Below, piece after piece: positions 11,656 to 37,488 of a DNA stretch of 64,000 nucleotides. Source of the DNA: Candidatus Thorarchaeota archaeon. Its GTDB lineage: Archaea > Asgardarchaeota > Thorarchaeia > Thorarchaeales > Thorarchaeaceae. Position 1 is the first letter of the stretch; every line of letters starts with the position of its first letter. Below the pieces are notes generated by a model, which had not been told where the DNA came from, did no database searches, and saw nothing but the letters and a program-made list of their open reading frames with translations. The position numbers and the translations under genes are program-made. The DNA lies in the NCBI GenBank assembly GCA_011364905.1, contig RDNZ01000007.1, positions 1 to 64,000 on the forward strand. The letters are read 5' to 3'.

Positions 11656-11668
11656 AAGGATATTACGC

Positions 11669-12910: not shown

Positions 12911-12925
12911 GATCGAGCCTAGTCA

Positions 12926-13690: not shown

Positions 13691-13738
13691 ATTATGACAC
13701 CTCTGCCTGTTAGGAACTGAATTAGATGACTCTAGAAC

Positions 13739-14857
13739 CTAGTGTAACTGCCCTATTATCTCTTCCATTGGTTTGTACTCCAGTTCAGGATGTCCATATC
13801 TTTCAGGAGAGAAAGCTTTCTTCCCGATTTCAGTACTCCCGGCAAACCGCAACCGTTCATGAGCTGGAACTGCAGTCACTACAACTTCCATATCTTGTTT
13901 GAGGTCTGCGCTCATCAAACCATGACCATTTTCAGGATTATGTAGGCAGACAAGGTCTGGAAACATCACCACAGGCTTACCATCGCACATGGCCATCATG
14001 TACTCGTTCTTCGCAACAACTTCAAAACGACCCTTCAGATTCTCAGGTTTGATACGAACCAAGACATGCCAATGGCCTGCACGATCCTCACCTTTGACCT
14101 CTTCTATCCTGCCTTTTGCTAGGATTTGTCCACCCATAGTATCAAGGAAAGCATCAATGGGATTCTTTCCGTTCGCATTTGCATCACGAATTGCAGCTCC
14201 AAGTTCAATCGACTTTGAGATACTGTTGGGAATCACTGCCTTCTTCAATTGAGCACCTGTCTGGTAATAGTGGTTGTTTGCGCCTGCACCGCCATCTTGT
14301 ACTACTGCGAACCTACCAATTTCATCAGCAAGTGCAGGGGAAGTAGTCTTGTCAACAATAATGACACTCCCATTCTTGGAAACCACAGGCATGGGGCATA
14401 ATTCAATCCCATAGCCGACGAACGTTATCATTTGAGTTTCAGGAGCTGAACGTCCTAGACCATCGCCATCGACGCAAGTAATCCCAGCTCGTGCTGCTAA
14501 GGAGAGCATCACAGTTGTATTTGTGCCACCTAACTCAAATGGAACTAGATGATCAACTTTTTTCCCCGTGATTCTCTCAGAGATCTTCATTGCTTCATGA
14601 AGCTCATACCGAGTTTCCCAAGCTTCTAGCATATCGCCAATTGACGTGAAAGCCATGACTGATCCCATATATCCTCCACACACAACAAAGGCATCATCTT
14701 TAATGTCATCAGGAGGGGTTATTTCGTAAATCCGACCTCTAGCATAATCCCAGTCTACAATAGGTCTTCCAAAAGAAACTGGGTCACCACCACCACCGGT
14801 TCCAAGAATTCCTACACCCGTAAGCATATCGTAAGCGTTCTCTTTTGAAAGATTCAT
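13739..14857 (-). CDS. DUF917 family protein
   Basis: ILGTGGGG, ELGGTN, DGDGLGRSAPE, FPDL; start at ATG 14857. Confidence 0.88.
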   Translation of the reverse strand: MNLSKENAYDMLTGVGILGTGGGGDPVSFGRPIVDWDYARGRIYEITPPDDIKDDAFVVCGGYMGSVMAFTSIGDMLEAWETRYELHEAMKISERITGKKVDHLVPFELGGTNTTVMLSLAARAGITCVDGDGLGRSAPETQMITFVGYGIELCPMPVVSKNGSVIIVDKTTSPALADEIGRFAVVQDGGAGANNHYYQTGAQLKKAVIPNSISKSIELGAAIRDANANGKNPIDAFLDTMGGQILAKGRIEEVKGEDRAGHWHVLVRIKPENLKGRFEVVAKNEYMMAMCDGKPVVMFPDLVCLHNPENGHGLMSADLKQDMEVVVTAVPAHERLRFAGSTEIGKKAFSPERYGHPELEYKPMEEIIGQLH

Positions 14858-14886
14858 CTCCCAAACACTCCGCAAACATATCCCAA

Positions 14887-15687
14887 TTATCGTGCGTCTC
14901 TTGTTCCTTCCATCGAATGAACGATTTTGTACCAGCGTTGCTTGGTGCCGACCTTGGCTCTTCGTTTCCATCCACGAGATTTTGGAGCATCCTCAATCAT
15001 TTGAAATAGTTTCTTGGCTCTATTGATAACAAGTTCTTTTTGGTCACTATTAAGTATAGACACCGTAGGTACAAAATCAATGAATTTCTTGATGTTTTCG
15101 GTCACGGTGTGGTAGAACCCCCAATCATCAGAGAGTATCTTCGCTATGTGTTTACCATTGACATCAGTGTCACTCCCATCGTCGGTGACATCGTGGGCAA
15201 GAAATGTTATAATTAGGTCCTTCAGGTCTTTTGCATTAATCTCAACAATCTGTGTCTTCTCTAAGAATAATTCCGCCAGTGGAATTGTTGGAGCATCAAC
15301 ATCCAGTCGCTTCTCTTTCTTGAAATCAATATTATGACAGAACTCCAAGTGGTCATAAAACACATCGATCTTTCGGTCATGTTCCTTGTCAATGAAAAGG
15401 TCTCGAAGCGTAGACGCTCGTGCAAAGCTCGGTGGAACCCAATAATATCCAAGGTCATCTCTAAAGAGGTTAATGAGCTTTTGTCGATGTTTATAATATG
15501 AGACATAATCGATGTCAGTGACTTCGCGTCCCATTTTGATATGCAAATCAGTGAATTCAGGGCTCTTGATTCTGAAAGCGAGGCAGCCCATTACTCTGAG
15601 AGGGATTCCTAGCCCAGCTGCAGCTTTCTCAATTCTCAAAGCTTCGTCCATGAAATCATCGAGAATTGGTCCATAGTTTTCTGTCAC
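14887..15687 (-). CDS. putative nucleotidyltransferase (Pol-beta superfamily)
   Basis: MGCLA...REVTDID, later KIDVF and KDLKD. Confidence 0.6.
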   Translation of the reverse strand: MTENYGPILDDFMDEALRIEKAAAGLGIPLRVMGCLAFRIKSPEFTDLHIKMGREVTDIDYVSYYKHRQKLINLFRDDLGYYWVPPSFARASTLRDLFIDKEHDRKIDVFYDHLEFCHNIDFKKEKRLDVDAPTIPLAELFLEKTQIVEINAKDLKDLIITFLAHDVTDDGSDTDVNGKHIAKILSDDWGFYHTVTENIKKFIDFVPTVSILNSDQKELVINRAKKLFQMIEDAPKSRGWKRRAKVGTKQRWYKIVHSMEGTRDAR

Positions 15688-23015: not shown

Positions 23016-24212
23016 TCAATCTTCAGGGAAATAATCCGGTTCAAGGATCTCAGGACTGATAATACCTGCAGAAACAGCTAACAGCTCAGCTAGATCAAGG
23101 ACTCGGACTTCCAAGTCTGCTTCATACATTCCATGTGTGAGGTTCATTTCACATGCAGGGCAAATAGTAGCCATCAGTTCTGCATCAGTCTTAACAAAGT
23201 CGCGAATGCGTTCGTCTGATACCTTCTGAGAGTGGTCAGGGAACATTATCTTGCACCCGCCGCCACCACCACAACAAAATGCATGTTCACGATTTCTGGA
23301 CATCTCGATGAATTCTACTCCTGGAATCGATTCGATGACCTTACGGGGTGGCTCGTAGATGTCCCTGTACCGCCCAATCTCACAGGGGTCGTGGTATGTA
23401 ATTTTCTTTTTCACCGACTGCTTGAGTTTGAGTTTCTCTTCTTTAACAATCTCTTCTAGAACCTCACTTGTATGCCGGACCTTGATTGGGAGTTTTTCAA
23501 TTCCAAGGAGCTTAGGATATTCCTCATCAAAGGCCCTGAAGCAACTGGGACAAGGCGTGATAATCTCCTTGACACCGCGATCCTGCAGTTTTTTGAGGTA
23601 TGCTTCAGCGTATTTCTTGGAGTGCTCCATCTTTCCAGTAATCCAATAGGGAGTGCCACAACAGGTCTGGTCTTCACCAAGAAAGTCGAGTTCATACCCA
23701 GCTGCTTGAAGAAGCTGAACAAGAATGTTGGTTTTCTCCTTGAAACGATGACTGGCAAGACATCCGGGAAAGAATAGAGTCCCTGAACCTTTTTTGAACT
23801 CAAGACCTTCTGACCATTTGTTGTGAACTTTTGTGGGGTCAGCGAAGATGTTTCCCGAGGAAGTCACTGTGTCAGCCATATGTGCTCCAGCTTCTGGGAT
23901 TTTAATCCCTTGATCGATGAAGTCTTGACGCATCGCTTTAGTGACTTCAATCACATCAATTTGAGCGGCCTTTTTGCACTCTTCTCGACATCGTCCACAC
24001 ATAAAGCATCCAAATACTCGCTCTGCGAGGTCCTCAGAGTATTCAAGTTTGCCTTCTAGAATTGCTCGTGCTATAGCCATTCGGCCTCTCGCTGTCGAGG
24101 ATTCCCAGTATTGGGTGAAAACCTCTGGGCAACGGTCGTTGTAGTCGAAACCGCGACAAAACTCACACCTCCCACAGGCATAGATCATGTCTTTGTATTC
24201 TTCTATCCTCAT
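23016..24212 (-). CDS. Fe-S/CCG-domain oxidoreductase subunit (GlcF/HdrD-like)
   Basis: CGRCEFC, CFMCGRC, CCG, YHDPC, CCGGGGG. Confidence 0.88.
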   Translation of the reverse strand: MRIEEYKDMIYACGRCEFCRGFDYNDRCPEVFTQYWESSTARGRMAIARAILEGKLEYSEDLAERVFGCFMCGRCREECKKAAQIDVIEVTKAMRQDFIDQGIKIPEAGAHMADTVTSSGNIFADPTKVHNKWSEGLEFKKGSGTLFFPGCLASHRFKEKTNILVQLLQAAGYELDFLGEDQTCCGTPYWITGKMEHSKKYAEAYLKKLQDRGVKEIITPCPSCFRAFDEEYPKLLGIEKLPIKVRHTSEVLEEIVKEEKLKLKQSVKKKITYHDPCEIGRYRDIYEPPRKVIESIPGVEFIEMSRNREHAFCCGGGGGCKIMFPDHSQKVSDERIRDFVKTDAELMATICPACEMNLTHGMYEADLEVRVLDLAELLAVSAGIISPEILEPDYFPED

Positions 24213-25606
24213 CGCAGTTCCTCCTCTGGTATGTAGATTCCTCGTTGCAAGATGTTTTTGGGGTCCAGAGTCTTTTTGAGTGTCTTTAGCAATCGATAAT
24301 ACCCAGTATCACGTTCCGCTACGAATCTCCGAAGGCCATCCCGCCCTCCAATCCCGTAAGGAACAACTGGTCCTCGCAATGTGATTTCATCAATCTCATC
24401 AGCCATTTTTACTAGTTCTTTCCATTCTTCAGGTTCATTGTAATTGGTGACCATAAAGGCAAGCCAGTCCCTCGGGAGGATTTGCCCGCCAAACCCAGCT
24501 TTCGTGTATCCACGCTTCTCTATGACCTCTTCTCTCCAGATTCTATACAAGAAAGTGATGTCATCAATCCTCAGAGATCCTGAACCAAAGAAGTGCCAAA
24601 CACCTGTATTGAACAGGTCTTGAAGTCCAGTAAGAATGCGACCAAAATAGTCATCAGCTGGGGCACGGTCTCCAATCTCGCCGCCTAGTTCTTGGATTTT
24701 CGCAATTACCTTCTTCTTCCTGTGGTCAACAATCTCCCGCTCATAACCAAAAATGTCTATCATCATGAAGAAGACGTCCGGTGCGGAGGGATCTACCCAC
24801 AGATAGACCCCTTGCAAAAACTCGTCGCCCACATGTCTATTGATGAAGTGTCCAAACTCGATGACGTCGTTGAGTGTCTTCATTGTAGCTGTAAATCGCT
24901 CAGAAATATCAGTCACAGGACGTATTCGTAATGAGAGTTCAGTACAGACACCAAGAATACCCTCTGCGCCAATGAACATCCCAGCCAAGTCGGGACCCAG
25001 GCATTGGCGCTTGAATTTGCCTGCACTCGGCCATGCAGCAGAACCAGTCTCCACAACATCTCCGTTTGGTAGAACCATTTCTAGGGAGATGATGTCCTGG
25101 TTCCCATGAAATCCGAACTTAGCAGTTGAGTGTGGTCCACCACCAGCTTTCATGACAGATCCTCCAACTGTCATTGCAGGACCCCCAGCCTCACTACAGA
25201 GATACGTCAGACCTTGTTTTCGTAGCTCTTGATCCAATTTCGCCCAGGTGCAGCCAGGTTGCACAGAAGCAACAAGATCTCTATCATTGATGTTTACAAT
25301 CTTGTTCATCCGTCCTAAATCAAGCATGATTCCAGATTCCTGAGGAAGGTAAGCATCCCAATGAGAAGTTCCGCCTCCGCGAATGTAGACTGGAACATTC
25401 TTCTCATTCGCTATCTTGAGAATCGCTTGAATTTCCTCACGGGTTTCAGGCATTGCAACATGAGTTGGCATCTTTTGTTCTGATGGACTTAAGTCACGAC
25501 TATACGGCAGCAAGTCGAAATTTCGATCGGTGACCCGACTTGGACCTACAACATCTTCTAATAGAGAGGTGATTTTTTTGATATCAACCATTGTGGCACT
25601 CTCCAA
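24209..25606 (-). CDS. FAD-binding oxidoreductase (GlcD/D-lactate dehydrogenase family)
   Basis: RGGGTS, TVGG, GPDL...GAEGILG, LDPKNIL. Confidence 0.88.
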   Translation of the reverse strand: MESATMVDIKKITSLLEDVVGPSRVTDRNFDLLPYSRDLSPSEQKMPTHVAMPETREEIQAILKIANEKNVPVYIRGGGTSHWDAYLPQESGIMLDLGRMNKIVNINDRDLVASVQPGCTWAKLDQELRKQGLTYLCSEAGGPAMTVGGSVMKAGGGPHSTAKFGFHGNQDIISLEMVLPNGDVVETGSAAWPSAGKFKRQCLGPDLAGMFIGAEGILGVCTELSLRIRPVTDISERFTATMKTLNDVIEFGHFINRHVGDEFLQGVYLWVDPSAPDVFFMMIDIFGYEREIVDHRKKKVIAKIQELGGEIGDRAPADDYFGRILTGLQDLFNTGVWHFFGSGSLRIDDITFLYRIWREEVIEKRGYTKAGFGGQILPRDWLAFMVTNYNEPEEWKELVKMADEIDEITLRGPVVPYGIGGRDGLRRFVAERDTGYYRLLKTLKKTLDPKNILQRGIYIPEEELR

Positions 25607-25702
25607 TAGTAATAGTCTTGGGGCTCACCGATTAATTAAAGACTGCGGTTCGAATGCAATTTAAGAAGAGATTATAAAATTCAGATGCTGAGGAAAGGAA
25701 GC

Positions 25703-26830
25703 ATGAACCCGCGAGAGAGATTCCTTGCAGCTGTCAATCATGAAGAGCCGGACAGAGTGCCGTTGGACTATTGGACAACTCCTCAAGCATACGAGGGTTT
25801 GCGTGACCACATAGGAATTGTATCTCCAGAAACTCAAGAATGGGGAATCATGTCTTCTTGGAAAACATCAGAGGAATTACTCAGACGTCTAAATGTGGAC
25901 TTCAGACGCGTCTACATGAATCCAGCAGCTGATTTTGAACCCAAAATTCTCCCAGATGGTTCCACTGAAACTGAGTTTATGTGTGGAATGAAATTGATAG
26001 GTGGATACTACGAGGTCACATACTATCCCTGGGCTGAGTTCACCGAGGTTGAACAGGTTGAGGATTTCGAATGGATTGACCCAGATGATCCATCTAGAAT
26101 GGAAGGAGTTCGGGATTGGGCAAAACACCTCCATGAGGAAACAGATTATGCGGTTGTTGGTATGGTTGGCGGTCCTTGGGGAGCTTTCGAGGTTGTAGCT
26201 CATTACATGAGGGGCTTCGACAAGTTTCTCATTGACCTTCTGAGGCATCAAGACCTCGCTGTAGCAATGATGGAAAAGAGCGCTCGGCTCGCTATTGAAA
26301 TGAACAGAGTGTTCTTAGACGAGGTTGGGGAATTTCTGGACATTGTACAAGTCGGTGATGACCTTGGTCATCAAGATGGGCTGTTGATCAGTCCCAGAAT
26401 ATACAGAAGCATGGTGAAACCAAGACACAAGAGAATCTACAGTGATATCCACAAGAGAGCACCACATGTCAAGATACTTTATCATTCATGTGGAGCAATC
26501 GAGCCAATGATTGAAGATTTGATTGAAGTTGACGTAGATATTCTTAATCCAATTCAACCTCTTGCCAAGGGAATGGACTCATTTGAGCTCAAACGCAAAT
26601 ATGGTAATCGACTCACGTTTCATGGCGGAATTGACCTGCAGTTCGCAATGTCCGCGCAGGGATCATTGGACGATTTAAGGAAAGAGATTGACACTCGGAT
26701 CGATGCACTTGCACCTGGTGGAGGATACATCCTAGCTCCAGCACATAATATACAACCAGAGTCTACACCAGAGAAGATTCTCGAACTGTATGACTATGCA
26801 ACGAAGAGAGGCGTATATCCCATAAACTGA
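25703..26830 (+). CDS. uroporphyrinogen decarboxylase / MtaA-CmuA family protein
   Basis: MNPRERF..PDRVP, GDDLG, HSCG, GGID, GGYILAPAHNI. Confidence 0.85.
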   Translation: MNPRERFLAAVNHEEPDRVPLDYWTTPQAYEGLRDHIGIVSPETQEWGIMSSWKTSEELLRRLNVDFRRVYMNPAADFEPKILPDGSTETEFMCGMKLIGGYYEVTYYPWAEFTEVEQVEDFEWIDPDDPSRMEGVRDWAKHLHEETDYAVVGMVGGPWGAFEVVAHYMRGFDKFLIDLLRHQDLAVAMMEKSARLAIEMNRVFLDEVGEFLDIVQVGDDLGHQDGLLISPRIYRSMVKPRHKRIYSDIHKRAPHVKILYHSCGAIEPMIEDLIEVDVDILNPIQPLAKGMDSFELKRKYGNRLTFHGGIDLQFAMSAQGSLDDLRKEIDTRIDALAPGGGYILAPAHNIQPESTPEKILELYDYATKRGVYPIN

Positions 26831-26831
26831 A

Positions 26832-27506
26832 TCATGGAATTGGTCGGTCTTTGTGAAGATCGTGAGGATCCTCACCCTCATCTAGCTTATCAGACCACCA
26901 CTCATCTGTAGCAACAACCTGTTCCGCATGAGATAGAACTTCTTCTATTTGATGTGCTGGAATAACGACTATTCCGTCACCATCTCCAAAAATCAAATCG
27001 CCGGGATTGACTGTCACTCCTCCGCACACGATGGGCTTTTGAACGGAATCCATGTCCAGTCTACCTCTCATTGTACCGGGGTGACGCCCTCGCGCAAAGA
27101 CTGCAAAATTCATCTTATCAATATCATGAATATCTCTGGAGGTCCCATCAACCACAGCACCTCTGACTCCTTTAGGTATGCCAATCTTAGTCAGTATCTG
27201 ACCCCAGGCAGAGCAATCTGTAGCTCCAGCCATGTCTATGACAATCACATCGCCCTCATCTGCGTCTGTTGCTAGGCTCATGAATAAATCCAGCTGCTTC
27301 TCATCATATGGCCGAGTATCTGGAGAGCGTACCAATCTTCCTGTCCGTGCGAAACCAGCTATCCGACTGCACTTCGTTAGAGGCGTGATGCCTCGATCCA
27401 TACACACCGCCCCAATTCCTATTTCATCTGCCGCATCAGAGAGAGCTGCAACATACAGCTTCAGTGTTCGTTCTATGATTTCATTCCGAGTTGCCATTAT
27501 TGACAT
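26832..27506 (-). CDS. RraA-like / HMG-CHA aldolase family protein
   Basis: AWGQIL, VVDG..RD, VNPGDLIFGDGDGIVVIP; ATG overlaps the upstream TGA. Confidence 0.88.
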   Translation of the reverse strand: MSIMATRNEIIERTLKLYVAALSDAADEIGIGAVCMDRGITPLTKCSRIAGFARTGRLVRSPDTRPYDEKQLDLFMSLATDADEGDVIVIDMAGATDCSAWGQILTKIGIPKGVRGAVVDGTSRDIHDIDKMNFAVFARGRHPGTMRGRLDMDSVQKPIVCGGVTVNPGDLIFGDGDGIVVIPAHQIEEVLSHAEQVVATDEWWSDKLDEGEDPHDLHKDRPIP

Positions 27507-27979
27507 CACTCCTTCTCCCAGCGATATATGCAATGGTCATCCCCACGCATCATGCATTTGGGAATAGACAGGGTTACGTTGAAGTCGACAGCTTGTCCAA
27601 TTCCTTCATCAATCTTTGTTACGTACTCGCAAATATCCGGCCCAGCACCTTTGGCTTTGAATGACTCAATCCAAGGGCATGATGTCACCTTTAGCTCAAA
27701 GCACTTCTCACTCTCAGTTTCAATAGAGAGTTCGAATCCGAAGTATGGATGCGCTGCATCAAAAAAATCGAAAATAGAGTGTAGGTCTCCACTCCTCAGT
27801 GATCCTTGCTTGATAGCAGCCCTTCCGAGTTCGAAACCATGGTGCCGATTCACTTCACTGATAGCATCCAATCCCTTTTTGCCCATTAGCTTTCGTATTA
27901 CTTCAACATAGATTGCATGGGTATCAGCTAGTGTATGCATATTGGTTCTTCGAACATCATCCGCGCCTGGATTAGACAT
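27506..27979 (-). CDS. V4R / ATC-hydrolase-like ligand-binding protein
   Basis: VTSCPW, C...ID, CMMRGDDHC. Confidence 0.75.
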   Translation of the reverse strand: MSNPGADDVRRTNMHTLADTHAIYVEVIRKLMGKKGLDAISEVNRHHGFELGRAAIKQGSLRSGDLHSIFDFFDAAHPYFGFELSIETESEKCFELKVTSCPWIESFKAKGAGPDICEYVTKIDEGIGQAVDFNVTLSIPKCMMRGDDHCIYRWEKE

Positions 27980-28131
27980 TGCCAACATTTTCCATTGAAC
28001 TTTGAACTTGGGATTACTAAGGTATCTTAAATCTCCTCTGAGTTGGCTACTACGGTTTGTTAAATTAATATAGTCCATTCGATAGGTTATATAAACTAGG
28101 AAATTCTCTGCGACTACAAAAGGTGCTGCCT

Positions 28132-29292
28132 ATGCTTGCTGAGAGAAATATCGATGTTCCTGCTAGTGAGATTAGAAAGGTCTACAATAATATCATTGGG
28201 AGAACCGACGTTTTCGACATGACTGTTGGGATACCCGATTATGACACTCCTCAGCATATCAAAGATGCAGCAAAGAGAGCCATCGACGAAGGATATACGA
28301 CGTATACTCACAATGCAGGGTATATTGAGGTCAGGGAGGCACTCGCTGAAAAACTCAAGCGGGACAACAATATAACAGCAGACCCAGCTACAGAACTGAT
28401 TTGTACAGCAGGCGGCATGGGAGCTCTTGTTCTCGCAAACCTAGTTATGATTGATCCTGGGGACGAGGTCATCTATCCAGATCCTGGCTTTGTAAGTCAT
28501 TATGCACACATAAAACTCGCTGGTGGCATTCCAGTCCCAGTCCAACTAAAAAAAGAGAATGATTTCGGTATAACTGCAGAAGATGTTGCAAACCTCATAA
28601 CACCAAAAACAAAAATGATTGTGCTAAACTCACCTAACAATCCAACAGGGGGAGTTATACCCAATAAAGAATTGAAGCAAATTGCGGAGCTTTGCATTGA
28701 GAACGACATCTATGTGATTGCTGATGAGGCATATGAAAAATTCAGGTACATAAATGAAGAACCCCAATTTATTGGCTCATTTGAGGGGATGAAAGAACGA
28801 ACAGTCTCTATATTCTCTTTCTCTAAGACCTATGCAATGACCGGGTGGCGGATAGCTGTTGCCACAGGCTCCAGTGAACTAATTGGTGCAATGACTAAAC
28901 TGCAAGAACACATTATTGCAATGCCTACTTCCATTGCGCAAAAGGCTGCAGAGGCGGCAGCAATAGGACCTCAGGACTGTGTCAACGAGATGCTCAATAC
29001 ATTTCGAAAACGAAGGGAGATAATCACAAAGGGACTAAGCGAAATTGAAGGAATTGAGTTGCATCCTCCAGGTGGGGCGTTTTATGTGTTTCCAGATGTA
29101 TCAGCTTATGGAGTCAAATCGTACGATTTGGTATACAAGATTTTGAATGCGACAAATGTAGCGACACTTCATGGTTCAGCCTTTGGAAAATACGGAGAGG
29201 GATTCCTGAGGTTGTGCTATGCTGTTTCAACAGAGAGAATCAATGAAGCTCTGAGCAGACTTGATGCCTATCTGCCAAAACTATTGCACTGA
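28132..29292 (+). CDS. class I/II PLP aminotransferase (AspAT-like)
   Basis: NSPNNPTG, DEAY, SFSKTYAMTGWR, GAFY. Confidence 0.93.
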   Translation: MLAERNIDVPASEIRKVYNNIIGRTDVFDMTVGIPDYDTPQHIKDAAKRAIDEGYTTYTHNAGYIEVREALAEKLKRDNNITADPATELICTAGGMGALVLANLVMIDPGDEVIYPDPGFVSHYAHIKLAGGIPVPVQLKKENDFGITAEDVANLITPKTKMIVLNSPNNPTGGVIPNKELKQIAELCIENDIYVIADEAYEKFRYINEEPQFIGSFEGMKERTVSIFSFSKTYAMTGWRIAVATGSSELIGAMTKLQEHIIAMPTSIAQKAAEAAAIGPQDCVNEMLNTFRKRREIITKGLSEIEGIELHPPGGAFYVFPDVSAYGVKSYDLVYKILNATNVATLHGSAFGKYGEGFLRLCYAVSTERINEALSRLDAYLPKLLH

Positions 29293-29341
29293 TAGTACTA
29301 GATGCGAAAAGTAATGTATGGAAAAAGCTGTGGGATGAGGG

Positions 29342-31654
29342 ATGACATCTCGGAGTAAGCGTCTCAAACAGCAAATGCTCGAGTCAGAACCAACCATTTC
29401 ATCAGAACGAGCGGTTCTATTTACAGAGTATATGAAGGAGCATTGGTCAGATTCAACAATTCTCCGAAATGCTGGTGCTTTTGCTTATGTACTTGATAAC
29501 ATGACTATCCGGATTGAACCAGAGGAACTCATCGTTGGAAACATGGGGCCAACTCCTCGTTCTTGTCAGGTATTTCCAGAGTATAGCTGGAAGTGGATTG
29601 AGGATGAATTAGATCGGTTCGCCAAGAGAAGAACCGAGAAGTTCATGATAAGTGAGGAGGACAAGCAGAACCTCCGCGAAGTCTTCAAGTTCTGGAGGGG
29701 AAAAAGCACAGCAGAACTGGCAGGATTTGCGATGCCAGCAGAATCAATAAAGGCTTCAAAAGCGGGTCTCTTTACGATTGGTGCTCCAGGGACTGGTATT
29801 GGCCATGTCATTGTCGATTACAACGAAGTCTTACACAAAGGGCTCCTTAGGATCCTGAATGAGTTGAACGGGAGAGAGGGAGACTACTTCGAAGCGGTTC
29901 GCATTGAGATTGAAGCGGTAGTGAGATTCTCTGAACGCTTCTACCATCTTGCCGCAGAGATGGCTACGAAAGAGGTTGATAAAGAACGAAAGGCAGAACT
30001 ATTGGAAATCGCACGAATTTGTAAGAAAGTTCCTGCTGAACCCGCTGGAACATTCTACGAGGCACTCCAGTCATTCTGGTTCATCCACTTACTGATACAG
30101 ACTGAATCAAATGGTCATTCAATCTCCACAGGTAGGTTTGACCAGTACATGTTTCCATTCTACGAAACAGACCTCAAGAGCGGCAAACTTGATGAAACAG
30201 GAGCTATTGAACTCCTTGAGGTACTCTGGGTAAAGTTATCATCTCTAATCAAAATAAGAAACGAATACTATAGTGTGGCCTTTGCGGGTCATCCCATGTT
30301 TCAAAACCTCACCATTGGCGGTCAGCATGCGAATGGACAAGATGCAACAAATAGCTTAACGAAAGCAATCCTTCAAGCTACAGCGAACATAAGGGTTACA
30401 CAACCAAGTGTTTCATTTCGATGGCACAAGAAAACTCCTGAAGACATCAAATTGCAGGTTGTCGATGTGATCTCGAAAGGCCTCGGTATGCCAGGTCTCT
30501 TCAACGATAATGCAATAATCCCTATGATGATTGAGAAGGGGACTGATCACTCAGAGGCGCATGATTACTCCATTTTGGGATGCGTTGAGCCAATCATAGG
30601 TGGAAAGTCTGACCCAAGACAGAACATAGGATATGTCAATCTGCCAAAGATTCTCGAAGTGACACTGAACAACGGAAGGGACCCAAAGACAAGTGAATTG
30701 ATTGGCAGGGAAACTGGAGATCCTAGAAGTTTCAAGTCGTTTGATGAATTATGGTTAGCATTTGAAGAACAGACTGACTATACTATTGAGCTGCTGACGC
30801 AGGCAGATAGGGAAGCTGCTAGAGTCCTGGCCAAAAACACGCCGACACCATTTATCTCATCGCTTTTGCAACGATGCAACGAATCGGGCAAGACATTACA
30901 AGAAGGAGGAGCAATCTATAGCTCTGGTGGAATCATGGGTGTTGGAGTGGCAATTGTGGCTGACTCACTCGAGGCTCTCAGGAAATACGTATTCGAAAAC
31001 CGAGAAGTCGCGATGGATGAGATGCTTCAAGTCCTTGCTAAGAACTATGAAGGCTATGAGGAACTCAGAGTCAGGTTAGAGAATGACTCCGAAAAGTATG
31101 GTAATGACATTGAACGAGTAGATCTTCTTGCTAGGAACACTGGCAGGATATTTTGTAATTCAGTTCAGAATCGAATGACGACGAGAAACACTCCTTATCA
31201 TGCTGCTTTGTTCTCAGTGTCTATGTATATTCCGCAGGGGGAGGTACTTGGAGCCACACCAGATGGAAGAAAGGCGGGGTATATGATATCTGATGGTGTT
31301 TCACCCACTCAAAACAGAGATGTCAATGGACCTACTGCAGCCATGAAATCTGTGGCCAGGTTAGATCACTCTCTGTGTTACAATGGCACGCTCTACAATA
31401 TGAAGTTCACACCGGATTTCTTTGAGAATGAGTCAAAGAGAAAGAAGTTCATTGGCATGGTTGATGCGTACTTCGCAATGGGCGGATTTCATGTCCAGTT
31501 CAATGTGGTTTCACGAGAAATCCTTGAAGATGCGAAAGTAAATCCGCTGCAGCATAGAGACCTAATAGTAAGAGTTGCTGGATATAGTGCTTATTTCATC
31601 GAATTGGACCCGTTCGTTCAGGATGAGGTCATTGCTCGAACGGAATTCTCCTAA
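29342..31654 (+). CDS. glycyl radical enzyme, PFL2/diol-dehydratase-like
   Basis: single-Cys loop LGCVEP, Gly loop VRVAGYSAYF, ESNGHS, RFDQY, QNLTIGG. Confidence 0.92.
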   Translation: MTSRSKRLKQQMLESEPTISSERAVLFTEYMKEHWSDSTILRNAGAFAYVLDNMTIRIEPEELIVGNMGPTPRSCQVFPEYSWKWIEDELDRFAKRRTEKFMISEEDKQNLREVFKFWRGKSTAELAGFAMPAESIKASKAGLFTIGAPGTGIGHVIVDYNEVLHKGLLRILNELNGREGDYFEAVRIEIEAVVRFSERFYHLAAEMATKEVDKERKAELLEIARICKKVPAEPAGTFYEALQSFWFIHLLIQTESNGHSISTGRFDQYMFPFYETDLKSGKLDETGAIELLEVLWVKLSSLIKIRNEYYSVAFAGHPMFQNLTIGGQHANGQDATNSLTKAILQATANIRVTQPSVSFRWHKKTPEDIKLQVVDVISKGLGMPGLFNDNAIIPMMIEKGTDHSEAHDYSILGCVEPIIGGKSDPRQNIGYVNLPKILEVTLNNGRDPKTSELIGRETGDPRSFKSFDELWLAFEEQTDYTIELLTQADREAARVLAKNTPTPFISSLLQRCNESGKTLQEGGAIYSSGGIMGVGVAIVADSLEALRKYVFENREVAMDEMLQVLAKNYEGYEELRVRLENDSEKYGNDIERVDLLARNTGRIFCNSVQNRMTTRNTPYHAALFSVSMYIPQGEVLGATPDGRKAGYMISDGVSPTQNRDVNGPTAAMKSVARLDHSLCYNGTLYNMKFTPDFFENESKRKKFIGMVDAYFAMGGFHVQFNVVSREILEDAKVNPLQHRDLIVRVAGYSAYFIELDPFVQDEVIARTEFS

Positions 31655-31721
31655 ATAAGCAGCACCAACGGCAGATTTAACATTTCCAAAAGAATCTGAG
31701 CACCCGTCAAACTACTTTGAG

Positions 31722-32726
31722 TTGTCAAAAATGAGTTATGATGTGGTTACCTTTGGTGAAGTAATGCTAAGGCTCTCTCCTCCCAACTTCAAGAGATTCG
31801 AGCAAACTGAGAGCTTCGATGCGCATGCTGGAGGAGCAGAGATGAATGTCGCAGTGGCGTGCACTCGGTTAGGATTGACGTCTGCCTATATCACAAAACT
31901 AGGTGACAATTCTATTGGACATTTCATCCGGAACAAAGCGAGAGAACATGGAGTGGACACTTCACATATACTCTGGGACCCTGATAGTCGGTGCGGCGTC
32001 TATTTTGTGGAGTTTGGAGCAGCTCCCCGAACCAACCGTGTGATCTATGACCGAAAAGATTCTGCAATAAGCAAGATTAAACCGGGGGAAGTTGATTGGA
32101 AGAAGATTCTGAAAGGGACCAAGCTTTTTCATACAAGTGGAATCACCCCTGCTTTAAGCGCAAGCTGTGCAGCAGCAACAGAAGAGGCTCTTAAGATCGC
32201 TAAAGAGCAAGGAGCCAAAGTCTCATACGATGTGAACTACAGAGGAAAACTGTGGACACCAAAAGATGCTCAAAAGTTCACCGAACCAGCATCAGAGTTC
32301 ATTGACATTCTAATAACAACAGAGGAGGACACAAAGGTTGTCTATGGCATTGAAGGAAAGGACTACGAGGAAGTTGCGGCCAAACTCACTGATAAGTTTG
32401 GATTCGAGATTGTAGTCATCACACTCCGAGAGACCCCATCAGTTTGGTTCAATAAGTGGTCAGTCTTTGCTTATTCAAATGGGAAGGTCTATAGAAGTCC
32501 GGTTTATGACGTGGAGATAGTTGATCGGCTTGGTGGGGGAGATTCTTGTAGCGCTGGATTCATCTATGGCTACCTTGAGCTAAAAAACCTACAGAAAGCA
32601 GTCGACTTTGGCTCAGCATTCTCTGCGCTAAAGCACTCAGTTCCTGGAGACCTTGCATTTGTAAACAAATCAGAGGTTGAAGAACTGACAAAGGGACGCC
32701 AACGCGGATTCCGTATTGAAAGGTGA
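31722..32726 (+). CDS. kdgK: 2-keto-3-deoxygluconate kinase (PfkB family)
   Basis: FGEVMLRL, GGAEMNVA, VIYDR, DVNYR.KLW, DRLGGGD. Confidence 0.85.
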   Translation: MSKMSYDVVTFGEVMLRLSPPNFKRFEQTESFDAHAGGAEMNVAVACTRLGLTSAYITKLGDNSIGHFIRNKAREHGVDTSHILWDPDSRCGVYFVEFGAAPRTNRVIYDRKDSAISKIKPGEVDWKKILKGTKLFHTSGITPALSASCAAATEEALKIAKEQGAKVSYDVNYRGKLWTPKDAQKFTEPASEFIDILITTEEDTKVVYGIEGKDYEEVAAKLTDKFGFEIVVITLRETPSVWFNKWSVFAYSNGKVYRSPVYDVEIVDRLGGGDSCSAGFIYGYLELKNLQKAVDFGSAFSALKHSVPGDLAFVNKSEVEELTKGRQRGFRIER

Positions 32727-33382
32727 AAGGCATGTGGACAAAGGAAAAAGCAATGAAATTAATCTATGACACAGCTCTGATTCCAATTATTCGTGTTGAG
32801 TCGGCGGATATTGCTTTCAAAGTGGCGGATGCATTTTTGCAGGGAGGCGTTCCCATCATAGAAGTGACCATGAGCGTTCCAGGCGCTGTCGAGGTTGTGC
32901 AACAACTTGTAGAGAAGTTTGGTAATAAGGTCCTGATAGGTTCAGGGACTGTTGTTAGCGGGAAAATGGCTGAGGAAGTCATCAAAGCTGGAAGTGAGTT
33001 CATTGTGAGCCCTAATTATTCTCGTGATTTGATTGAGACTGCAATGAAACATGACAAGCCAATTATACCAGGAGCCCTCACGCCCACTGAGATCTATGAT
33101 GCATACACAATGGGGGCAGATGCGGTCAAAGTATTCCCGTGTGGTATGGTGGGGGGTGCGGATTATCTGAAAGCCATAAGAGGGCCACTGCCCCACATCC
33201 CGCTCGTCCCAACTGGTGGCGTAGAACTAGAAACTGCAGGGTCCATGCTTGAGGCAGGAGCATATGCGCTTGGTGTTGGTGGAGCAATCACTGACAAAAA
33301 AGCCATCAAGGAAGGCCGGTATGAAGTAATTACTGAGAATGTTAGTAAATTTCTTGAGATTGTAAAGGACTACAGGAGGTAA
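32723..33382 (+). CDS. eda: KDPG/KHG aldolase
   Basis: IEVT, GSGTV, FIVSP, PGALTPTE, VKVFP, PTGGV. Confidence 0.9.
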   Translation: MKGMWTKEKAMKLIYDTALIPIIRVESADIAFKVADAFLQGGVPIIEVTMSVPGAVEVVQQLVEKFGNKVLIGSGTVVSGKMAEEVIKAGSEFIVSPNYSRDLIETAMKHDKPIIPGALTPTEIYDAYTMGADAVKVFPCGMVGGADYLKAIRGPLPHIPLVPTGGVELETAGSMLEAGAYALGVGGAITDKKAIKEGRYEVITENVSKFLEIVKDYRR

Positions 33383-33429: not shown

Positions 33430-33702
33430 ATGATTGAGGGATATTATAAAGAAAGACTGACTAAAGTGATTCAAAAGAAAACGTTTGGTCAGCTTGAGAG
33501 GTTTGCGCTAGACAGTGCTGGAAACACAAAGGTATACAAGCTAAGAGAAGTATTGCAGACATTTGATCCGGTTCATCTAACCATGTACATGGTAGGTGTT
33601 TGTGGAAGAAAGATTAAGGTGAAACTCAATACTTTCGATTTCCCTGATGGCGAACGTAGGGTAGGAATTGAGTTCATTGAGGTTCTTAAATGGGATGAAT
33701 AG
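33430..33702 (+). CDS. hypothetical protein
   Basis: 90-aa ORF co-oriented after eda. Confidence 0.6.
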   Translation: MIEGYYKERLTKVIQKKTFGQLERFALDSAGNTKVYKLREVLQTFDPVHLTMYMVGVCGRKIKVKLNTFDFPDGERRVGIEFIEVLKWDE

Positions 33703-33826
33703 AGAATCCTCAGAACAGTAGCAGAGCAGCAAGATATACAGCCAGAACGATCAATCAATATGAACCTTTAAGAGATATAACTAAATCCAGCGCTAAATCT
33801 GTACATTCTCATAGGAGCACTTAGAG

Positions 33827-34153
33827 ATGACTCAGGACCTACTAGAACTTATGCAAGAACGAATCACAATCGGATTAGAAAGAGAGAAGACCCATGAAGC
33901 GATACAAGGGTGGGAACGCACAGTCCAACTTACACTGAAGGAAGGACCACAGTACCACTTCATTGTCAAAGACAACAATATCACAGTTCACGAGGGACCT
34001 ATCGATGATCCAGATATGAGGATCCAGAGTGATGAGGACACGATTCGGAAACTGTTTCTTGAAGAGATGAGCGCAAGCTCAGCCATCTTTAAACGCAAGT
34101 TGAAAGTGAAAGGATCGACTTCTGATCTCATGAAGATAAGACACATTTTCTAG
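33827..34153 (+). CDS. SCP2 sterol/lipid-binding domain protein
   Basis: PD..I......L......A...KLKVKG pattern. Confidence 0.85.
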   Translation: MTQDLLELMQERITIGLEREKTHEAIQGWERTVQLTLKEGPQYHFIVKDNNITVHEGPIDDPDMRIQSDEDTIRKLFLEEMSASSAIFKRKLKVKGSTSDLMKIRHIF

Positions 34154-34171
34154 GTCATAGGGGGAAAGCGA

Positions 34172-35584
34172 GTGGCAATTGACAAGAAGATTGCAAAGGA
34201 ATTTGAAAATGCAGTCGGGGCCGAATATGTATCAACAAGACCTGATGTTCTACTAACATATTCACAGACTGCGTCCATGGCAGTCGAGCCTGTTATTCCA
34301 TCTGCGGTTATTCGTCCAGCAAATGCGAAAGAGGTATCTCAGATACTAAAGTTGGCAAACAAGCATAGGATACCTGTGACTCCTCGGTCGGGAGGATCTA
34401 GTCTTCAAGGAGAAGCCATCCCAAAACCGGGAGGAATTGTTGTCGACCTTTTGAGACTGGGTGGCATCACTCTTTACGAAAATCTCCGTTCCGTAACAGT
34501 TGGAGCAGGGGTCACTTATGGAGAACTAGACAAATTTCTAGCTAAGCATGGTCTCTTCCTCCCAGTTTATCCAGAGTCTTCTTTGGTCTGTACTGTTGCG
34601 GGTAATGTGGCCGTGAATGGAGCGGGTGTTGGTTCTAGTCTATATGGGTGCACTGGCGAGATGGTTCTCGGACTAGAAGTAGTTCTCCCTGATGGCACTA
34701 TCATACAGACCGGTTCGGAAGCAAATCCAAATTCGCCAGGGCCATTCATCCGATATGCCTTTGGTCCAGATCTGACAGGTTTGTTCATTGGCTCACTTGG
34801 TAGTTTTGGAATTATTACAAAGGTATCAGTGAAGACATTCAAACGGATGAAGTACTTTGACTATAACATGTACGGATTTGATACTGTTGAACTTGCGGAG
34901 CAGTTCCTCATTGAAATTAAACAGAACGACATCAACGGTCTCTTCACCTCTATCTACTCAGGAGAAGTCCTTGACTTATTCATGGACATGCTCTCGGAGG
35001 AACTTGGGTTCCCACCATTTGAGCATGCAGAGCGCACTGTATCAATGACAATAGGTCGCGTACGTGAAGACATGCTAGAGAGTGACGCTAAACTTGCACG
35101 CGAGATATGTGAGAGATTGGGAGGGAGAGTACTGAATGTCCGAGAAATGCCACAGCAAGAATGGGAGGGGCGCTTTTGGAACTTCGTTCGAGCCTCGTAC
35201 ATACACGGATGGCATTGGAGGACACTTTACCATCATCAGACTCCAACGAACTCGCACAAATCAGTAGACATCATAATGGATGCAATGGACAAATACAGGT
35301 TTCTTGGTCATACAGCTGGCTTTCAATCAGGACATAGCAGTATGAACCTCTATCCTCACCTCTACTTCGACCCGCAAGACAAAGATGAAGAAGAAAAGGT
35401 TGTAAAGGCCCACCAAGAAATAGCGAAAGCCTTGTTCAAATCGGGAGCAGTTCCCTTCAAGCTTGCTGAGTTTTGGAAGGATGCGATTGAGGACATGGAT
35501 GAGTACATGGACTTTCTCAAACATATAAAGAACTCAATTGACCCGAACAACATAATGAATCCGGGAGTGCTTGGAGGGATCTAA
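34172..35584 (+). CDS. FAD-binding oxidoreductase (GlcD family)
   Basis: PRSGGSSL, TVAGN, GPDLTGLFIGSLGSFG, IDPNNIMNPG. Confidence 0.9.
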   Translation: MAIDKKIAKEFENAVGAEYVSTRPDVLLTYSQTASMAVEPVIPSAVIRPANAKEVSQILKLANKHRIPVTPRSGGSSLQGEAIPKPGGIVVDLLRLGGITLYENLRSVTVGAGVTYGELDKFLAKHGLFLPVYPESSLVCTVAGNVAVNGAGVGSSLYGCTGEMVLGLEVVLPDGTIIQTGSEANPNSPGPFIRYAFGPDLTGLFIGSLGSFGIITKVSVKTFKRMKYFDYNMYGFDTVELAEQFLIEIKQNDINGLFTSIYSGEVLDLFMDMLSEELGFPPFEHAERTVSMTIGRVREDMLESDAKLAREICERLGGRVLNVREMPQQEWEGRFWNFVRASYIHGWHWRTLYHHQTPTNSHKSVDIIMDAMDKYRFLGHTAGFQSGHSSMNLYPHLYFDPQDKDEEEKVVKAHQEIAKALFKSGAVPFKLAEFWKDAIEDMDEYMDFLKHIKNSIDPNNIMNPGVLGGI

Positions 35585-35587
35585 TCA

Positions 35588-36748
35588 ATGGCAGAGATAG
35601 ATCTTGACGAACTCATAGAGAACTTACTTCAATGTCGTAGGTGCGGCATCTGCCGCAATGCGGTCTATGAGGAAAGAGGATTTGATGGAGTTTGTCCGGT
35701 CTGGAAGAACTCCCCTGGGTTTGAAACCAGTTTTATGCGTGGCCGGATTCAGGTTGCTTTAGCACTCTTGGAAGGAGTTCTTGAAAAGACTCCAGAGAAT
35801 TCTGAAGCGCTTTTTTCATGTACCCTCTGTGGAAACTGCACCGAAATCTGTGCCGCAGAGTTCAATCCTGCGGATTGCCTTGAGGAAGTCAGAGCAGTCC
35901 TGAATGATATTCCTAATGATGTTCGTGATGCAATAGCAGAGAAGATAATCCAGTTTGATAACCCCTATGAGAAAAACAGGAGTCTTAAACGCGAGTGGAT
36001 TAAGGAGGTAGGTTTTGAGATTCCAACCTCTGGTGAAGTCCTCTACTTCACTGGATGTACTGCAGGGATGAAGCTTCCAACTGTCGTCATATCGGCAGCA
36101 AGAATACTCAAAGCCGCAAATATTGAGTTCGCGGTCCTTGAAGAGGAACCATGCTGCGGTAGCGTCATGTTGCGAACAGGAAAAACAGATGAGGCCCGTC
36201 TTAATGCACAGAGGGTAGTAAGCGCAATTCAAAAGTCTGGAGCGAAAAAAGTCATTGTTACTTGCGCAGGATGTTTAAAGACCCTTCGAGAGGATTTTCC
36301 GAAGTTGGGACTCGAGATTCCCGAAGTCCTGCACATAACCGAGATCTTACAGGAAACTGCGGCGTGTAAGAAGCTGAAGCTCAAACCGGTGACAAAAAGA
36401 CTCAAGGTGACATATCACGATCCCTGTCACCTATCTAGAGCTATGGGAGTTTATGATGCGCCAAGAGAAGTAATCATGTCAATACCCAACATTGAGTTTG
36501 TCGAAATGGAAACAAGTAGAGAAACTGCAATGTGCTGCGGAGCTGGAGGGGGTCTTCGTTCATATGATCCTGAGCTTGCAAAGAAGATTGCCGCAGACAG
36601 AGTGATGAGTGCTCATGAAGTTGGGGCGGAGATAATAGCTACTGCGTGTCCGTTCTGCGAGAGCAATCTAAGGTTGGGAGCTGAGCAAATAAACAGCTCA
36701 ATTCGGGTTGCAGATATTGTGGACTTAATAGCTGAGCGCCTGATGTAA
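35588..36748 (+). CDS. Fe-S/CCG-domain oxidoreductase subunit (GlcF/HdrD-like)
   Basis: CRRCGIC, CTLCGNC, CCG, YHDPCHL, CCGAGGG, ACPFC. Confidence 0.9.
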   Translation: MAEIDLDELIENLLQCRRCGICRNAVYEERGFDGVCPVWKNSPGFETSFMRGRIQVALALLEGVLEKTPENSEALFSCTLCGNCTEICAAEFNPADCLEEVRAVLNDIPNDVRDAIAEKIIQFDNPYEKNRSLKREWIKEVGFEIPTSGEVLYFTGCTAGMKLPTVVISAARILKAANIEFAVLEEEPCCGSVMLRTGKTDEARLNAQRVVSAIQKSGAKKVIVTCAGCLKTLREDFPKLGLEIPEVLHITEILQETAACKKLKLKPVTKRLKVTYHDPCHLSRAMGVYDAPREVIMSIPNIEFVEMETSRETAMCCGAGGGLRSYDPELAKKIAADRVMSAHEVGAEIIATACPFCESNLRLGAEQINSSIRVADIVDLIAERLM

Positions 36749-36813: not shown

Positions 36814-37311
36814 TCAATAGCCTCTGCTTCGGTCGCGATATCCACCGCCACCGCGACGATCTCGGTCCCCATATCCACGGCCTCGGCCATATCCCCGACC
36901 GCCACCGCCACCGCCACCGCCATAGCGTGGACGTTGTTCGTGCTCTTCCGCACTCATGTCAACTTCATTGTTGACCTCTTCGATGGCTTCCTCAGCGTCC
37001 TTGAGGGTACCGTAACGTCCGATGTTGAGTCTAAGATGACCCTGAAAGAGAGTCGTGTATCCATTCTCGAGCCGGTAGGTCTTCTCATCTTCTATCTCAT
37101 CGATTGAAGCATCCCATAATGGAACTGTCACAAGACCAGTACTGTCTCCAACAACCGTATCGCAGACACGGTGGTTTTCTCCATCAGCCCTGGATGTCAC
37201 TTCCCTGACTTCTCCTTTCTCAATCACCTTGAATGAGATATTCACACTCTTCATTCTTGGTTTAAGTTCTGAAATTTGAGCCTCAATTGGCTCTCTCTCT
37301 TGATATCCCAT
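36814..37311 (-). CDS. ssb: single-stranded DNA-binding protein (single OB fold, crenarchaeal type) with Gly/Arg tail
   Basis: ISELKP, VGDSTG, LWD, NGY, LNIGRYG; RGG-rich C-terminus. Confidence 0.88.
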   Translation of the reverse strand: MGYQEREPIEAQISELKPRMKSVNISFKVIEKGEVREVTSRADGENHRVCDTVVGDSTGLVTVPLWDASIDEIEDEKTYRLENGYTTLFQGHLRLNIGRYGTLKDAEEAIEEVNNEVDMSAEEHEQRPRYGGGGGGGGRGYGRGRGYGDRDRRGGGGYRDRSRGY

Positions 37312-37488
37312 GGTCTATCACCTTGGATTTGCAGGCTTTCAAAAGTAGAATCTTCCTCAGGGATCGCAAAGCTGTGCCTGGAACTCTGGAGCTTGTGATT
37401 CAACTAATCTTTGAGGGCACTGCTACTCTATCGGGATATCTAATTCCCTTTAAACTCTTGTCTAATATCTGGAAAGTCCAAAATGAGG

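Follow-up and report, generated by a model that had tools for sequence, protein, structure and literature searches.

Glycyl radical enzymes (GREs) of the PFL-like class are, wherever a function has been characterised, bacterial, and section 7 of PMC13450708 (June 2026) calls the archaeal clades a clear gap. The oxygen-sensitive enzyme we discuss here is archaeal. It is encoded in 64,000 nucleotides of DNA from a Candidatus Thorarchaeota archaeon (positions 1 to 64,000 of contig RDNZ01000007.1, assembly GCA_011364905.1; this whole stretch is what we mean by the window), in a run of four genes: an aminotransferase (AT), the GRE, the sugar-acid kinase KdgK and the aldolase Eda. Within one Asgard family the GRE is inherited with KdgK and Eda, and it keeps the catalytic residues of C–O-cleaving dehydratases in a pocket that has been altered. 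We put at roughly 35% the chance that this Asgard-specific GRE carries out a 2,3-elimination on an aldonate, or on a 3,6-anhydro-aldonate from red-algal polysaccharide, giving 2-keto-3-deoxygluconate (KDG) or 2-keto-3-deoxygalactonate (KDGal): a radical entry to the lower branch of the Entner–Doudoroff (ED) pathway.

The best solved relatives of the GRE, matched over its full length, are the B12-independent glycerol dehydratase (GD) of Clostridium butyricum (PDB codes 1r8w and 1r9d) and propanediol dehydratase (PD; 5i2a and 5i2g). All three share fold families, glycyl motif, Cys-x-Glu loop, the general acid His164 and the pair His281-Ser282 (residues of GD, counted along the GRE–GD alignment). 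Against GD our enzyme reads N156A, Y339F (as in PD), W445R, H446Q/P, D447N, Y640F, P641S and I644M. It differs from both in having an archaeal host, no adjacent activase, no diol-utilisation or microcompartment genes, and KdgK–Eda next door. In GD, Glu435 deprotonates the C1 hydroxyl while His164 protonates the leaving C2 hydroxyl, and the C-x-E motif is kept by all six known C–O-cleaving GRE eliminases (PMC13450708, section 5.6). YbiW and PflD, the C–O lyases of 1,5-anhydroglucitol/mannitol-6-phosphate (8id7, 8yjn, 8yjo), match our GRE at 489–506 bits; they too are PFL-like and carry a C-x-E loop. As section 5.7 of PMC13450708 has it, they cleave a C–O bond beside a hydroxylated sugar carbon, and the keto-deoxy product goes on to an aldolase. 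They differ in being more distant than GD and bacterial, in acting on a phosphorylated anhydro-alditol rather than an acid, and in supplying an aldolase of another family.

The partner genes also have a described counterpart, the lower branch of the semi-phosphorylative ED pathway of archaea and Thermotoga (gluconate dehydratase, KDG kinase, 2-keto-3-deoxy-6-phosphogluconate (KDPG) aldolase). Our locus has the last two of these, with KdgK translationally coupled to Eda. What differs is the gene beside the pair, which here is a GRE and not a gluconate dehydratase of the enolase superfamily or the IlvD type. GREs of the same general family have been described in the same organisms, again with the activase encoded elsewhere: in Zhang et al. 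(2021, PMC8163825), five proteins from Hermodarchaeota and Thorarchaeota are read as alkyl- or benzylsuccinate synthases ('Ass/Bss') that add fumarate to hydrocarbons, whereas the residues and scores reported here point to an eliminase of the dehydratase type. No sugar-acid enzyme appears among the eliminases of section 5.6 or the isomerases of section 5.7 of PMC13450708, and our literature search, judged by titles and the beginnings of abstracts, found no paper that connects GREs with sugar acids, with KDG or with the ED pathway.

The locus and its glycyl radical enzyme

The window is part of contig C78 of a genome of 3.08 Mb that is 81% complete. The four genes run in the same direction, in this order:

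28123..29292, + strand: AT, class I/II; 389 aa from a GTG start, first ATG at 28132; PF00155 at 252 bits
29342..31654, + strand: GRE of the predicted C–O-eliminase (dehydratase) type, 770 aa; PF02901 and PF01228; altered pocket
31722..32726, + strand: KdgK, probable KDG/KDGal kinase of the PfkB family; TTG start, ATG at 31731; PF00294
32723..33382, + strand: Eda, KDPG/2-keto-4-hydroxyglutarate (KHG) aldolase; PF01081 at 154 bits

AT and GRE are 49 bp apart, and KdgK and Eda overlap by 4 bp. The distance from GRE to KdgK depends on where the kinase begins: 67 bp from the TTG, 76 bp from the ATG, which is the likely start, being favoured by ortholog alignments. An earlier note on this DNA had described four co-oriented genes with gaps below 70 bp. 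The orientation is right; the spacing is right only if KdgK starts at its TTG. The same note began the AT at 28132, which is indeed its first ATG, in an open reading frame that runs from the GTG at 28123. The GRE motifs it quoted are all present in the enzyme (GIGHV at residues 151–155, SNGHS at 256–260, GCVE at 413–416 and SDPRQN at 423–428), and it was correct that the window holds no classical gluconate dehydratase of the IlvD or enolase family: neither an IlvD/Edd nor a mandelate racemase/muconate-lactonizing enzyme (MR/MLE) dehydratase was found within it.

The GRE belongs to the PFL-like superfamily, matching PF02901 over positions 1–647 of 647 (682 bits) and PF01228 over 2–106 of 106 (113 bits), with the glycyl motif RVAGYS at residues 744–749. 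In NCBIfam it reaches only the broad subfamily TIGR01774 PFL2-3 (736 bits, cut-off 678). The equivalogs stay out of reach: HpfG (590 bits, cut-off 1000), HypD (584, 1100), CutC (551, 1050), HpsG (540, 1000) and the E. coli PflD-type PRK09983 (584, 1109). A search of the PDB ranked glycerol dehydratase first at 681 bits, ahead of propanediol dehydratase (629), 9rco (612, a structure named only 'glycyl radical protein') and then CutC, HypD and PflD/YbiW.

The catalytic set of the GRE comprises Cys414 and Glu416 of the GCVE loop, His155, His259-Ser260 and Gly747. Their counterparts in GD numbering (Cys433, Glu435, His164, His281, Ser282 and Gly763) are kept in every one of 120 homologs at least 70% identical to it. 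His155 aligns with His164 of GD, in a column where CutC-like representatives carry Asp. A C-x-E loop together with a His general acid is what marks a C–O-cleaving 1,2-eliminase, and because the Cys/Glu/His set is retained, we regard C–O-cleaving 1,2-elimination as a well-supported prediction for this enzyme. The earlier note had typed it in the same way, as a single-Cys eliminase (the Cys and Glu of GCVE are kept in 120 of 120 homologs) that keeps the His residues of the glycerol/diol dehydratases but departs from them in the segment after the Cys loop, and we came to the same view.

The pocket has changed, and has then been held fixed. Y339F, W445R, D447N, Y640F, P641S and I644M are invariant, each in 120 of 120 homologs; position 156 is Ala in 119 of them and Ser in one, and position 446 (Gln in our enzyme) is Gln, Pro or Ala. 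Among the residues that we take to be the glycerol contacts of the 2004 GD structure paper (N156, H281, S282, Y339, D447 and Y640), H281 and S282 are retained and the other four replaced (N156A, Y339F, D447N, Y640F). The combination was absent from the 62 nearest representatives compared, out of 149 aligned from other 50%-identity clusters. Clustering with a characterised enzyme whose full active site is kept, which would have told against the earlier note's reading, is not what was found.

It also stands well apart in sequence space. Among 1.84 billion cluster representatives, one was 72% identical (1277 bits), the next was 42% identical (642 bits) and none other exceeded 44%; the nearest relatives outside the clade are 42–44% identical. 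In a FastTree tree of 81 sequences, whose deep branches are weakly supported, the clade is monophyletic: its stem is long (0.62) and its local support 100%. Its partners, at 98%, are P0125, P0126, P0140 and P0166, all uncharacterised representatives from bacteria (one a Synergistaceae bacterium); the propanediol-dehydratase-like representative is not among them. The Synergistaceae sister is encoded in a metagenome-assembled genome, JAISQC010000231.1 (2515–14831). Its GRE has Asn in place of the His general acid and an NCVES loop, and around it lie an activase, a tandem second GRE, a Liv-type ABC transporter, an SDR and a GntR/FCD regulator, none of which indicates a substrate. A GTDB scan with this sister protein turned up a single close relative, at 73% identity, besides 79 loci of the GD/PD-like kind at 37–43%.

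Within the Asgard archaea the distribution is sharply bounded. Across 301 genomes, matches of at least 65% identity were confined to a single GTDB family (f1), the next best match being 42%. An ortholog occurs in 54 of 77 f1 genomes, this one included. The source names of the close homologs among the 120 listed are of the Thorarchaeota type, with one ortholog labelled Hermodarchaeota; 120 homologs at 70% identity or above show how common the clade is among Asgard archaea of sediments.

Linkage to KdgK and Eda

Synteny was followed in 20 of the 53 other genomes with an ortholog, chosen for long contigs and covering 10 genera. AT, GRE, KdgK and Eda are contiguous and in the same order at 17 of the 20 loci (at one of these KdgK is split). 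At two more, both from one genus, a PAS sensor kinase has been inserted between GRE and KdgK: a multi-PAS sensor histidine kinase of 1147 aa, at 11472–14915 of locus L058 (G027, contig C12) and in the same position at L059 (G037). It might sense the substrate of the pathway. The remaining locus, in genome G055, has a GRE that stands alone and broken. Here the arrangement Mrr–AT–KdgK–Eda lacks the GRE (L075, contig C6, 9306–12188), which has been displaced to another contig (L057, C15, 8830–11163). Both GRE and KdgK of G055 contain internal stop codons, and the cassette looks to be decaying.

KdgK has an ortholog in 54 of the 77 f1 genomes, G000 (the genome of the window) included. When the two genes are scored together, 52 genomes have both, 21 neither, two GRE only and two KdgK only; the four discordant genomes are fragmentary assemblies (a contig end, or 66–74% completeness). 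The pair is missing from near-complete genomes as well (G069, G128, G131, G182 and G075, at 95–98%). The earlier note had allowed that its reading would suffer if the kdgK/eda linkage proved not to be conserved. It is conserved, at 19 of 20 loci in 10 genera, and GRE and KdgK are either both there or both missing in 73 of 77 f1 genomes. It is also peculiar to this clade: 80 bacterial GD/PD-like GRE loci, with flanks of up to 10 kb, had no Eda, no AT and one KdgK-like gene.

KdgK is probably a KDG/KDGal kinase. It stays below the cut-off of its best equivalog model, the KDG/KDGal kinase model NF041332 (313 bits, cut-off 440), and every one of its top PDB matches bears the name KDG kinase, led by 2afb, a 2-keto-3-deoxygluconate kinase, at 291 bits. 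Eda passes TIGR01182 at 186.8 bits against 156.05. In all ten cluster-bearing genomes of our dehydratase survey (81–99% complete) PF01081 has a single match, and it is always the copy in the cluster. UxuA, UxaC and the UxaA/GarD type were each found in none of these ten. The genome of the window has no IlvD/Edd match at its 81% completeness, and its sole, weak MR_MLE match is enolase. IlvD/Edd was not found in seven of the ten genomes, and these archaea may lack the standard dehydratase step of branched-chain amino-acid and pantothenate synthesis.

Other Asgard families have KdgK-like genes of their own, 39–62% identical. At ten such loci the contexts are unrelated (BKACE, SDR, MFS transporters and, once, HGD-D/BcrAD), and no alternative supplier of KDG was seen beside them. 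The KdgK closest to ours outside f1 (about 60%) is found at locus L062 (G025, contig C13, 33700–53600; 4046–11256 of the locus), where KdgK and Eda directly follow an HpcH/HpaI aldolase. About 1.4 kb further upstream lie two activator ATPases (BcrAD/BadFG) and HGD-D, which resembles 2-hydroxyacyl-CoA dehydratase. They make another dehydratase system of the radical type, an unrelated one, in the vicinity of KdgK–Eda.

The aminotransferase is a different sort of companion. Its nearest PDB chains are the aspartate/aromatic aminotransferase of Pyrococcus horikoshii (1gd9 and 1dju, about 310 bits), which places it in the aspartate/aromatic subgroup, and it reaches no NCBIfam equivalog. An ortholog (E at most 1e-100, at least 61% identity; paralogs at most 43%) is present in 56 of 81 f1 genomes. 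In most genomes AT is specific to the cluster, yet it can be separated from the GRE: three genomes have it without a GRE, G260 and G167 in unrelated surroundings and G227 as the lone cluster gene on a contig of 7 kb. As the ortholog is found apart from the GRE, variants that start from an amino-sugar acid or a hydroxy-amino acid are weakened. Genome G158 retains the URO-D and ATC-hydrolase-like genes that neighbour the cassette without AT, GRE or KdgK. Since AT and these two genes all occur without the cassette, the tight core is GRE–KdgK–Eda.

A candidate reaction and its competitors

A GRE needs an activase, and none lies close to this one. Between 18091 and 40688 of the window there is no radical-SAM activase and no diol-pathway gene. 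The genome has a single activase above the TIGR02494 cut-off (317 bits against 174), outside the window on contig C43 (L162, 9868–13031), where it follows a second GRE that is 34% identical to ours. In G027, G037, G063 and G155 our GRE is the sole match at E of 1e-100 or below, and each has one orphan activase with no GRE beside it. The flanks of that activase in G027 and G037 (L158 and L159) match those on C43; the second GRE has gone and the activase has been kept. We infer from this that the C43 activase acts on our GRE in trans.

With slightly less than even confidence, we take the four genes to be a catabolic cassette confined to a single Asgard family (labelled Thorarchaeota or 'Hermodarchaeota'), and the GRE to be a new subfamily of C–O-cleaving 1,2-eliminases/isomerases. 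With the same reserve we propose that the GRE converts a sugar acid to KDG or KDGal; our guides in this are its neighbourhood, its joint inheritance with KdgK and the absence of the classical dehydratases. The reaction might run as follows. Once activated in trans by the genome's single activase, the enzyme would use a thiyl radical on Cys414 to take hydrogen from a hydroxyl-bearing carbon, Glu416 would deprotonate the hydroxyl of that carbon, and His155 would protonate the oxygen leaving group on the carbon next to it. The likeliest substrate is a sugar acid that is attacked at C2 and sheds its C3 oxygen, for instance the aldonates gluconate, galactonate or mannonate. Alternatively it may be a 3,6-anhydro-aldonate whose ether ring is opened, by analogy with YbiW/PflD. 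When a 2-hydroxy acid gives up its C2 hydrogen to the radical and the C3 oxygen leaves, the result is precisely a 2-keto-3-deoxy acid, the substrate of KdgK. The predicted product, 2-keto-3-deoxy-gluconate or -galactonate, would be phosphorylated by KdgK, and Eda would then split it into pyruvate and glyceraldehyde-3-phosphate. AT is probably accessory, perhaps in pyruvate/alanine exchange or as a side entry.

Several things weigh against a KDG-forming GRE. The C2 hydrogen of an aldonate is acidic to begin with, and the same chemistry is carried out by dehydratases and cycloisomerases that use no radical, so a radical enzyme is not chemically required; a non-radical route through anhydrogalactonate is known. 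The substitutions are found on that side of the pocket which presumably binds the C3 hydroxyl of glycerol, and they fit a bulkier or anionic group beyond a diol equally well. Classical dehydratases are not wholly missing from the surveyed genomes: IlvD/Edd is present in three of the ten and a strong MR/MLE match in two, so that four genomes hold one or the other. The other six are without any of the classical families surveyed that form 2-keto-3-deoxy acids (UxuA, UxaC, UxaA/GarD, IlvD/Edd and MR/MLE). KDG has further sources besides these, namely KduI/KduD, DEH reductase and the glucosaminate lyases. AT finds no obvious place in the proposed pathway, and its link to the other three is looser. 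A single deletion removes adjacent genes, so their joint loss is not independent proof of a common pathway, and synteny in this family is generally high, reaching the unrelated Mrr-like and inositol-phosphate-synthase genes.

That last pair of points also speaks for a plainer explanation: the GRE would be a glycerol or 1,2-propanediol dehydratase of the usual kind, or would work on some unrelated substrate, and KdgK–Eda would sit beside it through conserved synteny alone. The best PDB match is, after all, glycerol dehydratase, SSB-like genes are among the unrelated ones kept nearby, and AT turns up elsewhere too. We still think it improbable. N156, D447, Y339 and Y640 have been replaced and the replacements then fixed in 119–120 of 120 homologs, and the surroundings hold neither an activase nor a 1,3-propanediol dehydrogenase nor microcompartment genes. 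Two further observations tell against it: the bacterial loci, with no Eda or AT and one KdgK-like gene among 80, and the stop codons in both GRE and KdgK of G055. A middle course keeps the diol chemistry and changes the substrate: a terminal-diol dehydratase (R-CH(OH)-CH2OH to R-CH2-CHO) acting on a larger or anionic polyol, alongside or after KdgK and Eda instead of supplying them. A sugar phosphate made by the kinase, KDG itself, 2-keto-3-deoxypentonate and 3,4-dihydroxybutyrate are candidates. GD and PD, the nearest enzymes of solved structure at 681 and 629 bits, are diol dehydratases, the residues for general acid/base catalysis are intact, the positions that have changed are ones we take to contact the third-carbon hydroxyl of glycerol, and an Arg has appeared two residues before the former Asp447. 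The highest equivalog score is that of an enzyme of anionic diols, HpfG, far below cut-off though it is. There is precedent, in section 5.7 of PMC13450708, for GRE isomerases that act on sugar phosphates upstream of an aldolase. What makes us doubt a terminal diol is that no candidate gives a product of obvious use to KdgK/Eda or AT, and that the co-inheritance makes sense only if the substrate is a metabolite of KdgK/Eda. The sulfonate anchor of IslA, IseG and HpsG, two Arg and one Gln according to PMC13450708, was not seen either. On this rough mapping the Arg/Gln/Arg anchor is seemingly absent, and a sulfonate substrate such as 2,3-dihydroxypropane-1-sulfonate (DHPS) or one from a sulfo-ED pathway was set aside. 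On balance a terminal-diol enzyme is unlikely.

The earlier note had itself offered a second route, through hydroxy-amino acids, with AT and the KHG-aldolase activity of Eda. In such a route AT would make a 4-hydroxy-2-oxo acid, Eda would cleave it, and the GRE would attack a hydroxylated amino acid in the manner of HypD. Members of the Eda family are annotated as bifunctional KHG/KDPG aldolases; nearby lie a second gene of the pyruvate-aldolase type (RraA-like) and GlcD-like oxidases, which could handle glyoxylate or glycolate; and the Synergistaceae sister-group GRE adjoins an amino-acid transporter of the Liv type. It leaves the kinase with nothing to do, however, and no gene shares its inheritance with the GRE more closely than KdgK. 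AT is the most separable member. HypD is a distant model at 584 bits of 1100, and we consider the route quite improbable. Least credible, and by a very long way from likely, is an alkyl- or benzylsuccinate synthase. The label exists: an 83%-identical ortholog (P0018) bears the source name 'Benzylsuccinate synthase alpha subunit', and PMC8163825 argues from a single conserved Cys and 29–33% identity to AssA and BssA. But the single Cys is common to all GREs other than PFL, and the BSS/MASS alpha subunits align only partially, from about residue 181, at 287–301 bits against 681 for glycerol dehydratase. The C-x-E loop and His general acid are features of 1,2-eliminases according to PMC13450708. 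No context of hydrocarbons or fumarate addition was seen among the neighbours, whose open reading frames are assigned to other families, no search having been aimed at the small beta and gamma subunits.

Neighbouring genes, expression and significance

On either side of the cassette lie further genes, assigned here from Pfam except where no family is given:

23016-24212, - strand: CCG/Fe-S protein, a conserved neighbour
24209-25606, - strand: FAD-binding oxidase, a conserved neighbour
25685-26830, + strand: URO-D family protein, a conserved neighbour
26832-27533, - strand: RraA-like aldolase, divergent from the cassette
27506-28078, - strand: ATC-hydrolase/MetOD1-like protein, divergent from the cassette
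within 33430..36748, + strand: 90-aa open reading frame of no family, downstream of Eda
33827-34153, + strand: SCP2, downstream of Eda
34172-35584, + strand: GlcD-like FAD oxidase, downstream of Eda
35588-36748, + strand: CCG/Fe-S protein, downstream of Eda

The RraA-like and ATC-hydrolase-like pair is syntenic at most of the 20 loci, where the unrelated Mrr-like, SSB-like and inositol-phosphate-synthase genes have also been kept near the cassette. The URO-D gene has an ortholog in 59 of 81 family genomes, and its product has no PDB match at E of 1e-5 or below. Downstream, the GlcD-like oxidase and its CCG/Fe-S partner look like a D-2-hydroxyacid dehydrogenase of the lactate/glycolate type; the pair (FAD_b–CCG_b) follows Eda at nine of the 20 loci, with SCP2 at eight of those nine. 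The cassette is in fact flanked by two paralogous pairs of GlcD-like FAD oxidase and CCG/HdrD-like Fe-S protein (23016–25606 and 34172–36748), and both may be D-2-hydroxyacid dehydrogenases tied to electron transfer through the membrane or ferredoxin.

Parts of the stretch are contained in 20 sequencing-run rows from 14 studies. One of them, a mangrove metatranscriptome (X20), has short contigs without mismatch in the GRE (30715–30888 and 31243–31415) and in KdgK (31916–32094), which give a weak hint of expression, DNA carry-over being possible; where X20 has no RNA contig over the cluster, nothing follows from it. Three further short contigs from X20, at 37176–37399, cover the 5' end of the SSB-like gene and the sequence upstream of it.

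What would it mean if the GRE did form KDG? It would be the first GRE to act on a sugar acid, by a reaction new to these enzymes, and the first archaeal PFL-like GRE with an assigned function. The labels of 'benzylsuccinate synthase' and hydrocarbon degradation that these genes now carry would be corrected. With its fixed, unusual pocket and a clear partner pathway in the genome, the clade is a well-defined target for enzymology. And for the Thorarchaeia themselves, a radical enzyme feeding KdgK and Eda would mean a revised account of how they use carbohydrate.

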